A stretch of DNA of 64,000 bases from the NCBI RefSeq assembly GCF_013122565.1, contig NZ_CP053258.1. One strand, written 5' to 3'. This DNA comes from Escherichia coli (GTDB taxonomy: Bacteria > Pseudomonadota > Gammaproteobacteria > Enterobacterales > Enterobacteriaceae). Shown piece by piece: positions 44,996 through 50,131 of the stretch (positions within the stretch are counted from its first letter, which is position 1; each line of letters begins with the position of its first letter). Position numbers and translations under genes: made by a program. A model generated the notes under the pieces. It saw only the letters and a list, made by a program, of their open reading frames with translations, had not been told where the DNA came from and made no database searches.

Positions 44996-45055
44996 ATGAT
45001 TGAACGTGAACTGGGGAACTGGAAAGACTTTATCGAAGTTATGCTTCGTAAGTAA
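44996..45055 (+). CDS. ypfM: 19-aa small protein YpfM
   Basis: atg att gaa cgt gaa ctg ggg aac tgg aaa gac ttt atc gaa gtt atg ctt cgt aag taa = MIERELGNWKDFIEVMLRK, preceded by an AGAGAGG RBS; matches the reported E. coli small protein YpfM between yffB and acrD. Confidence 0.7.
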   Translation: MIERELGNWKDFIEVMLRK

Positions 45056-45115
45056 TTCCTGAGACAAAGTACAAACAGCAAGAACCCGCTGAGCAGGTTC
45101 TTAATCGGAAAGTTG

Positions 45116-45150
45116 AAAAAGGCGACACATTGGCATGTCGCCTTTTTTAT
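45116..45150. terminator. Bidirectional rho-independent terminator downstream of acrD and ypfM
   Basis: aaaaaggcgacacattggcatgtcgccttttttat: 8-bp stem flanked by an A-run and a T-run. Confidence 0.75.
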
Positions 45151-45153
45151 TGC

Positions 45154-48100
45154 TTATTCCGGGCGCGGCTTCAGCGGGAAGCGGCGGCGCACCAGCACAA
45201 AGAACAGCGGCACGAAGTAAATAGCCAGAATAGTAGCCGAAATCATCCCGCCCATTACGCCAGTACCCACCGCATGCTGACCACCGGAACCGGCACCCGT
45301 GCTGGTTGCCATTGGCAATACGCCGAAGATAAATGCCAGCGAGGTCATCAGAATCGGGCGTAAACGCTGACGGCAGGCGTGGAGCGTCGCTTCAAACAGG
45401 TCGTGGCCTTTTTGGTTCATCTCGTTAGCAAACTCGACGATCAGGATGGCGTTTTTCGCCGATAAACCAATGACCGTTAACAGGCCCACCTGGAAGTAAA
45501 CGTCGTTTTCCAGCCCGCGCATCCAGGTTGCCAGCAGCGCGCCGATAACCCCCAGCGGCACGACCAACATTACCGAGAACGGCACCGACCAGCTTTCATA
45601 CAATGCCGCCAGACACAGGAATACCACCAGCAAGGAAATGGCGTACAGCGCCGGAGCCTGCGCGCCGGAAAGCCGCTCCTGATACGACATCGCCGTCCAC
45701 TCCAGACCAAAGCCGTTTGGCAACTGCTTCACTAACGATTCCATAATATCCATCGCCGTACCGGTACTGACCCCCGGTGCGGCTTCCCCAACAATCTCAA
45801 CCGCAGAATAACCGTTATAGCGTTCCAGACGCGGCGAGCCTGTCTCCCAGCGTGAGGTCGCGAAAGCAGAGAAGGGCACCATGCCGCCATCTTTATTTCG
45901 GACATACCAGAGATTGATGTCATCTGGCAGCATGCGATACGGCGCAGCTGCCTGCACATAGACTTTCTTCACGCGACCGCGATCCATAAAGTCATTCACA
46001 TAGCTCGAACCCCAGGCGGTTTGCAGTGTGTCGTTAATATCGTCGATAGCAACGCCCAGCGCCTGAGCTTTACGCTGGTCGATATCAATCTGCAACTGCG
46101 GACTGTCGTCGAGGCCGTTATGGCGCACACGGGTTAGCTCCGGGTTTTCCGCCGCCAGCGCCAGCAACTGGTTACGTGCTGCCATCAGCGCATCGTGACC
46201 TGCTCCAGCGTGGTCCTGCAACTCCATATCAAAACCTGCAGAACTACCAAGACCGCTAATTGCTGGCGGGCTGCTGGCGATAACGCGAGCTTCTTTAATT
46301 TGGTTAAACGCCTTTGTTGCACGCTCGATAATGGCAAACGAGGTGCCGGTCTTACTGTCGCGTTCGCTCCAGTCTTTCAGGCGGATAAACATTCGCGCCA
46401 CGTTTTGCCCGTTGCCCCCAGGGCCAGAGCCAACGGTGGCAAACACCGACATGATGTTGTCTTTTTCATGGGTGAAGTAATATTTCTCGATTTGCTCAAC
46501 GACTTTCAGGGTCTGTTGTTGGGTTGAACCGCTGGGCAATTGTACCGAGGTAGTAAACATGCCACGGTCTTCCAGCGGTAAGAACGACGTCGGCAAACGC
46601 AGGAACAGGAACACCATGCCGCCAAGCAGCAGGACATAAATCACAATCCAGCGCAGGCTACGGTGGAGAATTTTCGCCACCCCTTTTTCGTAGCGTTCGG
46701 CGTTGCGGTTAAACATCTGGTTAAACCAGGCAAAAAAGCCTTTTTGCCCGTGATGCTCACCTTTTTTCAGTGGCTTAAGTAGCGTGGCACACAGAGCCGG
46801 AGTGAGGATCATCGCTACCAGTACTGACAGCACCATCGCCGCAACAATGGTAATAGAGAACTGGCGATAGATGGCACCGGTGGTGCCGCCGAAGAAGGCC
46901 ATTGGTACAAATACCGCCGAAAGCACCATCGCAATCCCGACCAGTGCCCCCTGGATCTGCCCCATCGATTTACGTGTGGCTTCGCGAGGAGTGAGTCCTT
47001 CCTCACTCATAATACGTTCGACGTTTTCCACCACCACGATGGCATCATCCACCAGCAGACCGATCGCCAGCACCATCGCGAACATGGTTAAGGTGTTGAC
47101 GCTGTAACCGAAGGCGTAAAGTACGGAGAAGGTTCCCATCAACACCACCGGCACGGCGATAGTGGGTATCAGCGTGGCGCGGAAGTTTTGCAGGAACAGA
47201 TACATAACGAGGAAAACCAGAGCGATAGCTTCCAGCAGCGTTTTCACCACGTCTTCAATGGAGGCTTTAACAAACGAGGTGGTTTCATATGCCACCTTGT
47301 ATTCCAGTCCGTGCGGGAAATACTGCGCCAGCTCGTCGAGACGATTGAGCACCAGCTCCGCTGTCGCCATTTCGTTAGCGCCGGAGGCCAGTTTTACCCC
47401 CAGCCCGGAGGCTGGCTTACCATTGAAGCGGCTAAGATAATCGTATTTCTCCGCCCCCATTTCGACGGTGGCGACATCGCCCAGCCTTACCTCTGAGCCG
47501 TCCTGATTCACCCGCAAGGTGATATCGCGGAACTGTTCTGGTGTTTGCAGCAGTGACTGGGCGTTAATGGTGGCGTTGAGCGCCTGCTTATCGACGGAAG
47601 GTGTACCCCCAAGTTGTCCAACCGCAATCTGCGCGTTCTGTGACTCAATGGCATCAGTGACATCTTTAGCCGTCATCTGGAAACTGTTGAGTTTCGCCGG
47701 GTCCAGCCAGATACGCATGGAATATTGCGAACCATAGGCATCGATATCCCCGACGCCATTCACGCGGCTTAACGGGTCCTGAATATTACTGGCAACATAA
47801 TCAGCAATATCCTGTTTATCCATCGAACCATCGGTAGAGACGAAGGCAATGGTCAGAATGTTGGTATCGCCGGTTTTACGCACCGTCACGCCCTGATTTT
47901 GCACCGCCTGCGGTAACTTTCGCATGGCTGATTGCAGCTGGTTTTGTACTTGCTGCACGGCTTCGTCCGGATCGGTGCCTGCTTTAAAACTTAAAGTGAC
48001 AGATGCCTGACCGGTGCCACTGCTCTGAGATGACATATACATGAGATTATCGAGGCCGGTCATATTTTGCTCGATAACCTGGGTCACGGTGTTTTCCAGC

Positions 48101-48267
48101 GTCTGGGCCGATGCGCCGGGATAGTTAGCGGTCACTCGCACATTCGGTGGCGCGAGATCGGGGTATTGTTCAACGGGCAATGAAAAAATCGCCAGGGTAC
48201 CTGTCAGACACAACAGGATTGCCAGCACCCAGGCAAAAATGGGGCGATCAATAAAGAAATTCGCCAT
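45154..48267 (-). CDS. acrD: RND-family aminoglycoside/multidrug efflux pump
   Basis: 1037 aa; [41 protein letters not shown]...; 12-TM RND transporter. Confidence 0.95.
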
Positions 48268-48337
48268 TAAAAGAGGACCTCGTGTTTCTGCGTATCGTTG
48301 TAGGCTTGACTTGCTTCACTGTAGCGGCAAGGTACGA

Positions 48338-48355
48338 GCCAATCGTGGAGAAAAA
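48338..48355 (-). promoter_or_regulatory. BaeR-box-like site in the acrD promoter
   Basis: Minus-strand TTTTTCTCCACGATTGGC closely matches the reported BaeR consensus TTTTTCTCCATDATTGGC, about 70-90 bp upstream of the acrD start. Confidence 0.6.
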
Positions 48356-48430
48356 AAGGAGTTAATGTAAATTATCATGCCCTTTTATACTGAACCTTAA
48401 GTGCAAGTATTCTTTGGTCAGTAGGAGGCA

Positions 48431-50131
48431 TTACATCAACTGACTTTCCTCACCCTCCGCAGAGCGAAAGCTAATACTCACTAACGTGCCGCCGCCGGAA
48501 GGTTGTGAAAAAGTCAGCGTCCCACCTAGCCGTTCCGCGCGTTCGCGCATGATATTCAGACCATAATGACCTTCGGGTTCTTTCGGTTCACCGATACCAA
48601 TCCCGTTATCACGGATATAAACCGTGTGATTGCCGTCCGGCGCGGTGACGCAGCTAACGGCGATTTCGCTGGCGTTGGCGTGCTTCATCGCATTCAGCAC
48701 CGCTTCGCGAATAATTTGCAACAAATGCACCTGCATTTGCGCATCCAGTGCCAGGGTTGGCAGACGGCAGTCGAGGGTCAGTTTGGCGCTGGTTTGATTT
48801 TGTAACGTATCCAGCATTTCCCTCAACGCGGAGGGGAGATCCGCCTGCTGCAGCGTCAGGCGGAAAGTAGTCAACAGCTCGCGTAACTGCCGATAAGCAT
48901 CATTCAACGCCTGGGAAAAATCGGCCATGATACTTTGTGCGGTGGCGTTATCTTCCGGTATCGAACGCTTCAGTAACGTCAACTGGATACGTAAGTAAGA
49001 AAGTACCTGAGCCAGCGAGTCGTGCAGTTCGCGGGCGATGGTCGCACGTTCTTCCATCAACAATAACTGCTGAAAATGCTTCTGCGCCTGATTAAAGTAC
49101 AAACCGCGTCCCAGCATCGATGAAACACTGTTAAGCAGCGGTTCTGATGAGGAAACGTGACTATTTTGCCAGTGCAGTTCACCGTAAACCGTCTCTTGCA
49201 TTGTCACCGGTAAAATCTGCATCGGCAATTCCGGGTTTGGTTGCCCTTCGCTAATCCGCCAGTTTTCACCGACATTTAACTCCAGATATTCAGCCGCTTC
49301 ATTGTCGCGAACAATCTGCAAAATATGGCGGAAACAATGCACATCAATCTGGCTGGTGTTCAGCGCCTGCGAACATTGATACAACACCTCCAGACGACGC
49401 TTGGCCTCGTGGAGATCGCGAGTTTTTTCTTCTACCGACGCCTCCAGCGAACGGTACAATTTATGTAGCTCGCTCGACATCTGGTTAAAGGTTTTTGCAA
49501 GCAGGCCAAGCTCATTCGGCAGGCTGGTATCCAGCGGTGGCGAGTCGAACTGCCCGTGTTCAATACGCTGACTGGCGGTAACCAGCTGATTCAGCGGGGC
49601 AACCACCTGATGGCGTATGCGGCGCAAAGTAAAAAAGACCAGCGTGAAAATACCGATGCCGCCAGCCAGGGAAATCGCCACCACCAGCAGCATTTTGCGT
49701 TCAGCGTAGTGCTGTAAAGCCAGCACGAACAGGTCTATCTGATTAACATAATTATTAATATTGGCCTGATACCACGGCAAATCACCCTTGCTGAGCCGAT
49801 TATTCATCTCCAGCCAGTTGGCATTCAGATGCGCATAGCGGGTTTTTACTGCTTCTGGCACATACCAGACGTTGAGATTGGTTAATACTGGTGAATGCAG
49901 TGCCTGCTGAAATAACTGGCGATGTGCATTGAGTTGTGGACTGCCACTTTGCAAGTCGTAGCCCAGGCGGTAACTCTGCATACGCAGCGATCCGGCAATA
50001 TTGATAGCCTCAGCGTCGCGCAAACTGCTCGCCAGAGTTAGCAGAGCGATACCCGTGGAAAGAATCGACAGCAGCACAATGTAAAAAAAGGCCCGGGCCA
50101 GACTGGCCGAGACGGGTCGTTTAACAATCAC
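48431..50131 (-). CDS. narQ: Nitrate/nitrite sensor histidine kinase
   Basis: ORF 48431..50146; I trimmed it to the GTG at 50131 (VIVKRPVSASLARAFFYIV...) to give the 566-aa NarQ I recall; the ATG at 50146 is an alternative start; HAMP and HisKA_3/HATPase domains. Confidence 0.9.
   Translation of the reverse strand: MIVKRPVSASLARAFFYIVLLSILSTGIALLTLASSLRDAEAINIAGSLRMQSYRLGYDLQSGSPQLNAHRQLFQQALHSPVLTNLNVWYVPEAVKTRYAHLNANWLEMNNRLSKGDLPWYQANINNYVNQIDLFVLALQHYAERKMLLVVAISLAGGIGIFTLVFFTLRRIRHQVVAPLNQLVTASQRIEHGQFDSPPLDTSLPNELGLLAKTFNQMSSELHKLYRSLEASVEEKTRDLHEAKRRLEVLYQCSQALNTSQIDVHCFRHILQIVRDNEAAEYLELNVGENWRISEGQPNPELPMQILPVTMQETVYGELHWQNSHVSSSEPLLNSVSSMLGRGLYFNQAQKHFQQLLLMEERATIARELHDSLAQVLSYLRIQLTLLKRSIPEDNATAQSIMADFSQALNDAYRQLRELLTTFRLTLQQADLPSALREMLDTLQNQTSAKLTLDCRLPTLALDAQMQVHLLQIIREAVLNAMKHANASEIAVSCVTAPDGNHTVYIRDNGIGIGEPKEPEGHYGLNIMRERAERLGGTLTFSQPSGGGTLVSISFRSAEGEESQLM

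Follow-up and report, generated by a model that had tools for sequence, protein, structure and literature searches.

Tandem-repeat operators of OmpR/PhoB-family regulators, the pho box of PhoB among them, can replace the -35 element of a promoter. For BaeR, a member of this family, only four sites have been reported in E. coli, namely those of spy, mdt-bae, acrD and ycaC (Bury-Moné et al., PMC2731931), and acrD is counted with mdtA and spy in the small core regulon of the BaeSR system (PMC2731931). Passages in PMC3915751 and PMC3799227 attribute the consensus TTTTTCTCCATDATTGGC to Nishino 2005, and a passage in PMC3799227 gives CTNCA / TCTNCANAA as the alternative motif of Yamamoto 2008. The binding data of Nishino 2005, Hirakawa 2005 and Yamamoto 2008 are cited here second-hand, from what later papers say of them. 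In E. amylovora, BaeR shifts a fragment from upstream of acrD in EMSA (Pletzer and Weingart 2014, PMC3915751).

The RND pump AcrD exports aminoglycosides and some beta-lactams. Its gene is reported to have a low basal expression (Horiyama and Nishino), and the title of PMC10904727 links BaeS mutations that raise acrD expression to temocillin resistance.

The acrD box among known BaeR sites

The stretch of DNA that was analysed (the window) comprises 64,000 nucleotides. It contains, both on the minus strand, acrD (45154..48267, an RND permease of 1037 aa) and upstream of it narQ (48431..50131, 1701 nt), which encodes a nitrate/nitrite sensor kinase and ends with the stop codon TAA at 48433..48431. 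The gene borders come from the list of open reading frames and from matching E. coli genomes with their RefSeq annotation. The two genes were named from the same annotation and the near-identity found with 5,424 of 5,426 complete E. coli genomes; the closest of these genomes showed 99.7% identity across 763 bp. The two genes are separated by 163 bp (48268..48430). This gap is base-for-base the same as in E. coli K-12 MG1655, i.e. it has no substitution, whereas the adjoining narQ differs from that of MG1655 at 25 positions. The Shine-Dalgarno sequence of acrD, GAGG (48278..48281, minus strand), is part of ACGAGGTC, which is kept in nearly all orthologues 10 nt 5' of the ATG. Small open reading frames of 20-43 aa in the gap were set aside, as the pattern of conservation is promoter-like and not coding. 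At the other end of acrD, the annotation of matching genomes places the small protein gene ypfM, convergent to acrD, at about 45000..45150 of the window. At MG1655 2590726 on the minus strand, the Term-seq supplements have a strong 3' end, the only one given for the two genes, and it counts as antisense to the 3' end of acrD.

The 18-mer TTTTTCTCCACGATTGGC at 48355..48338 on the minus strand agrees with the published consensus TTTTTCTCCATDATTGGC at 17 of 18 positions, the sole mismatch being C for T at position 11; the minus strand around it reads ...CATTAACTCCTTTTTTTCTCCACGATTGGCTCGTACC... A nearly complete match at this place, in a short gap between the co-oriented genes acrD and narQ, is what the original prediction had claimed, and both statements hold. 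The match is also unique. When the window was scanned with the consensus allowing up to three mismatches, the acrD box was the only hit, and shuffled sequences gave 0.18 on average. With at most one mismatch it was again the only hit, and none of 100 shuffled windows had any. Within the box, the repeat TCTCC at 48347..48351 (minus strand) forms the core of the BaeR half-site TCTCCACGATT and fits the CTNCA / TCTNCANAA element; TCTCCACGA agrees with TCTNCANAA at all but position 8. The box is a rediscovery of the catalogued BaeR site of acrD and as such already known. The consensus itself goes back to a handful of reported BaeR sites, acrD among them, and agreement with it is therefore partly circular.

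A scan of MG1655 with the same consensus recovered both other K-12 boxes, TTTTTCTCCCTTATTGGC at mdtA and TTTTTCTCCATAATTGGC at spy, and thus the acrD site resembles independent sites as well. The three boxes belong to the same 18-mer family, acrD being identical to each of the other two at 16 of 18 positions. Like acrD, mdtA and spy have a second (C/T)CTCC one or two helical turns upstream (10 bp in mdtA, 22 bp in spy). In contrast to both, the acrD box reads C-G at positions 11-12 of the consensus, and in E. coli its upstream repeat is ACTCC. The spy box also is apparently much farther from its gene than the acrD box, 138 nt from the ATG. In Erwinia the gene is orthologous and the motif homologous (TTCTTCACGATTACTGGC in E. 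amylovora, AATTTCTCCACGATTATC in the counterpart locus L082 of Erwinia mallotivora), yet the motif lies farther from the start codon, at 148-166 bp in E. amylovora and 139 nt in L082 as compared to 70 nt in E. coli.

Conservation and geometry of the promoter block

To place the box in a wider context, acrD loci were collected by a protein-guided scan with one genome per species. This yielded 80 loci with an AcrD identity of 82-99%, 79 of them with upstream sequence, ranging from Escherichia over Citrobacter, Salmonella, Enterobacter, Klebsiella, Kosakonia, Buttiauxella and Cedecea to Erwinia. One locus, L047 (CACSKA010000009.1), is labelled Chryseobacterium sp. 18061, and its acrD is of the Enterobacteriaceae type (88% identity) and has the same promoter block; this assembly is probably mislabelled or contaminated.

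The core TTTCTCCACG(A/T)TTG is almost invariant and was found in nearly all of the 79 upstream regions, and in nearly all of them the best match to the consensus lies on the acrD strand, in most cases 68-74 nt from the ATG. In an alignment of 80 sequences, mean conservation was 1.50 bits per column in the 18-mer and 0.80 bits in the 170-nt upstream region, while the narQ-proximal (distal) part of the gap was unconserved, with 0.13 bits. The box is under evolutionary constraint above that of the neighbouring non-coding DNA. The 18 nt just 5' of the published 18-mer (48373..48356) reached 1.64 bits per column, and the best 18-nt conservation window starts at 48361. In the 18-mer itself, conservation is lowest at the GGC that ends it and at its first two T. 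Judged by per-column conservation in the 80 sequences, the full conserved block on the minus strand is GCATGATAATTTACATTAACTCCTTTTTTTCTCCACGATTG at 48340..48380, and it includes the 18-mer.

The core of the box is also kept in genera in which narQ does not precede acrD, such as several Kosakonia as well as Klebsiella, Raoultella and Kluyvera. In the latter three and several other genera (L021, L022, L024, L032, L033, L035, L040 and further loci), a narQ was not detected in the 1.2 kb upstream of acrD. Since the promoter block is retained in these genomes all the same, the adjacency of narQ and acrD is not ancestral to the whole family.

Downstream of the box, the hexamer TACAGT at 48323..48318 (minus strand) begins exactly 20 nt after CTCCACG and is the putative -10 element of a sigma-70 promoter. 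A TAnAnT hexamer at exactly this distance is present in 78 of the 80 sequences. It occurs as TACAGT (42), TAGAGT (15), TAAAGT (14) or TACATT (8), with T1, A2, A4 and T6 constant in all. The sequence of the 14 nt that separate the 18-mer from the hexamer varies across the orthologues, and so does the spacing between hexamer and ATG, which ranges from 42 to 178 nt and thereby gives 5' UTRs of variable length. A strict scan of 47900..48900 found no full consensus sigma-70 promoter, and no -35 hexamer is recognisable.

On the other side, a second repeat, ACTCC at 48358..48362 (minus strand), lies 5' of the proximal TCTCC at a distance of 11 bp, or one helical turn. Among 79 sequences the pentamer at this distance is TCTCC in 61, TCTTC in 14 and ACTCC in two, namely the window and the Escherichia sp. 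locus L006. The repeats are thus direct and helically phased, as would be expected for a dimer of the OmpR/PhoB family. In this respect the acrD promoter is like the pho box: direct repeats phased by about 11 bp, a missing recognisable -35 element, a fixed distance to the -10 hexamer, and a site that would lie at or over the -35 position. It differs in the repeat itself, which is of the TCTCC type and not CTGTCAT.

These features bear on the question whether the match to the consensus could have arisen by chance in AT-rich intergenic DNA and have no function. In favour of this, the consensus is a short one that goes back to very few sites, acrD included. The shuffled windows gave no match of this quality, though, and in about 80 species the site is retained with constant spacing to the -10-like hexamer. 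Shuffles, conservation and spacing together effectively refute a chance match, to which we assign next to no probability.

The best reading of the arrangement is a tandem-repeat BaeR site at the -35 position of a sigma-70 promoter that would depend on an activator. A transcription start at about 48311-48312, as we infer it from the position of the hexamer, would put the 18-mer at about -44 to -27. We regard a class II geometry of the acrD box as somewhat better than an even bet.

Probable BaeR control and the adjacent conserved element

Several studies connect acrD to BaeSR. The induction of acrD by tungstate is present in MG1655 and lost upon deletion of baeS (PMC13209484), and the response to indole of a promoter fragment spanning -274 to +11 runs through BaeS and BaeR (PMC4780735). 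With BaeS H250A, the acrD promoter's indole response was lowered only in part (PMC4780735), which indicates that other inputs to acrD exist. CpxR is reported to boost the expression of acrD and mdtABC in a BaeR-dependent manner (PMC2731931). On the other hand, BaeR ChIP-exo in MG1655 under ethanol stress gave peaks at spy and mdtA and none upstream of acrD; acrD is also outside the BaeR iModulon, and the authors judged its regulation to be indirect (PMC7657598). Detection by ChIP-exo thus sets mdtA and spy apart from acrD. In our rating, the negative ChIP-exo result and the partial effect of H250A more likely reflect a weak or condition-dependent occupancy than the lack of a site, because the phylogenetic footprint is strong and because BaeR shifts the orthologous fragment of E. 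amylovora.

The most conserved stretch of the block is not the 18-mer but GATAATTTACAyTATC at 48376..48361, just 5' of it, which in most species forms the inverted repeat GATAAT-N4-ATTATC. A match to the Fur consensus GATAATGATAATCATTATC coincides with this stretch: 13 of 19 positions agree at 48361..48379 (probability 0.04 in shuffles of the gap) and 13-14 of 19 in most orthologues. This match is weak. The one hint in print that Fur influences how acrD and mdtABC are expressed comes from Horiyama and Nishino, as 'data not shown'; acrD is absent from the main text of a paper on the Fur/RyhB regulon. For CpxR, the sequence GTAAA-N5-ATGAT, located 106 bp upstream of Salmonella acrD, is a site by prediction alone (PMC4846824). 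Its homologue in the window is ATAAA-AGGGC-ATGAT (48374..48388, minus strand), a weak candidate, and of this the TAAA and GCATGAT parts are kept in 70-90% of the orthologues. Tandem GTAAA pentamers 10 bp apart, as in a CpxR box, were not found at 48388..48374. A scan of the window with the CpxR consensus at up to three mismatches was too permissive to be informative, since it returned 467 matches.

Could the conserved block then mainly be the operator of another regulator, CpxR or Fur? BaeR would in that case act on acrD indirectly, and the likeness to the BaeR consensus would reflect a promoter architecture shared among co-regulated genes. The missing ChIP-exo peak at acrD (PMC7657598) fits such a view, as does the position of the most conserved stretch, which the 18-mer consensus leaves unexplained and which holds a GTAAA on the opposite strand in addition to the inverted repeat. 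Both candidate regulators have a match at this place, Fur by the 13 of 19 positions and CpxR by the site predicted in Salmonella. Neither match is strong, however. Within the window 23 positions reach at least 13 of 19 for Fur, and TTTAC, invariant at the centre, does not fit the Fur consensus; the CpxR-like site, read directly, has four mismatches to GTAAA-N5-GTAAA. Moreover, the near-invariant TTTCTCCACG and the second TCTCC phased by 11 bp constitute a BaeR-type motif that is common to mdtA and spy and is not the consensus of CpxR or Fur, and the reported action of CpxR on acrD is strictly dependent on BaeR (PMC2731931). We therefore regard a primarily foreign operator as improbable. It is more likely that CpxR and Fur are additional inputs rather than replacements for BaeR.

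The E. coli sequence has one peculiarity in this region. At 48362, in ATTAACTCC, the minus strand has an A, so that the upstream repeat reads ACTCC as opposed to the TCTCC of the majority of the other species. Of 5401 matching E. coli records, 5303 have the very same 60-mer around the box, with this A included; the 60-mer with the T allele has no exact match. In view of these counts and of the TCTCC elsewhere, the A is derived and fixed in E. coli; an origin specific to K-12 is ruled out, as the allele is fixed across the species. The change from T to A disrupts two features at once, the TCTCC of the upstream repeat and the inverted repeat GATAAT-N4-ATTATC. In E. coli, ACTCC in place of TCTCC may weaken the upstream BaeR half-site.

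A possible, if rather doubtful, extension of these observations is a composite operator. The second, equally conserved element at 48376..48361, which abuts the BaeR repeats, would then bind another factor, either in a Fur-like repression or as a target of CpxR, and the fixed change at 48362 would have loosened the binding of BaeR in E. coli relative to Salmonella, Citrobacter and Enterobacter. Such a loosening could account for the lack of an acrD peak in the ChIP-exo data of MG1655.

As to BaeR itself, the 18-mer is very probably a functional operator of acrD. The original prediction had taken the consensus match as support for BaeSR control. By itself the match is a partly circular argument, as outlined above; what sustains the claim is the identity of the box with the published acrD site, the dependence on BaeS and BaeR in the literature, and the strong phylogenetic footprint. 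What was computed here is the sequence of the box, the lack of a second match in the window, the degree of conservation, the constant spacing and the arrangement of the repeats; the BaeSR dependence and the reported binding of BaeR come from the literature.

We propose that the direct repeat (T/A)CTCC-N6-TCTCC is occupied by a head-to-tail tandem dimer of BaeR~P. The 18-mer would be the promoter-proximal part of a conserved control block of about 40 bp (48380..48340), in which the proximal repeat takes the place of a -35 element at the fixed distance of 20 nt upstream of TACAGT (48323..48318). As no -35 hexamer can be recognised, the promoter is probably weak intrinsically. From its position overlapping -35, BaeR~P most likely recruits RNA polymerase in the way PhoB does at pho boxes, and envelope stress sensed by BaeS (indole, tungstate, copper, zinc) would thereby switch on acrD. 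Such an activator-dependent arrangement would explain both the low basal expression of acrD and its induction by BaeS signals. The mechanism of activation, like the position of the start, is deduced from sequence features.

As the cis element for BaeS-driven expression of acrD, the box leaves the known picture unchanged. The comparison merely shows in more detail how far the conserved block extends, how constant its spacing to the -10 element is, and that the upstream repeat carries a change specific to E. coli.

Possible read-through from narQ

The original prediction had also held that read-through from narQ must be insulated in the gap. No support was found for this; insulation is neither demonstrated nor a necessity. 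A scan of 47900..48900 found no terminator consisting of a hairpin and a U-run on the minus strand of 48268..48430. The narQ 3' end together with the gap showed no significant RNA structure (z = -1.3; 20 of 200 shuffles fold as well), Rfam gave no match in the gap at a permissive E-value, and a repeat finder detected only weak inverted repeats there. The narQ 3' end is absent from the published Term-seq tables, and narQ is probably poorly expressed. The supplements of SMRT-Cappable-seq mention neither narQ nor acrD.

Nevertheless, one could suppose that the T-rich stretch and the nearby inverted repeats serve as a terminator or insulator for narQ and that the region is conserved for this reason. 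The two genes are co-oriented and only 163 bp apart, a long-range pairing of AUGCCU (48431..48426) with AGGGCAU (48383..48377) can enclose a small hairpin, and a run of seven T follows at 48357..48351. This run, however, begins about 19 nt past the stem and belongs to the BaeR motif, and the searches just described revealed nothing like a terminator on the strand of narQ and acrD. The pattern of conservation is at odds with the idea, too: the block is equally conserved without narQ upstream in Klebsiella, Raoultella and Kluyvera, and it is the narQ-proximal part of the gap that is unconserved. Together with the missing 3' end in the Term-seq tables, this makes a narQ terminator a highly improbable reason for the conservation.

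In other genera the sequence of the narQ-proximal part of the gap is a different one. In three Citrobacter loci (L011, L013 and L017) strong G+C-rich hairpins with -21 to -34 kcal/mol follow narQ, e.g. GCGCCGTCGGGTCTGG...CCAGGCCTGACGGCG. They are located about 60-70 nt upstream of the TTTAC anchor and are without a counterpart in E. coli. These hairpins may be REP-like elements or terminators.
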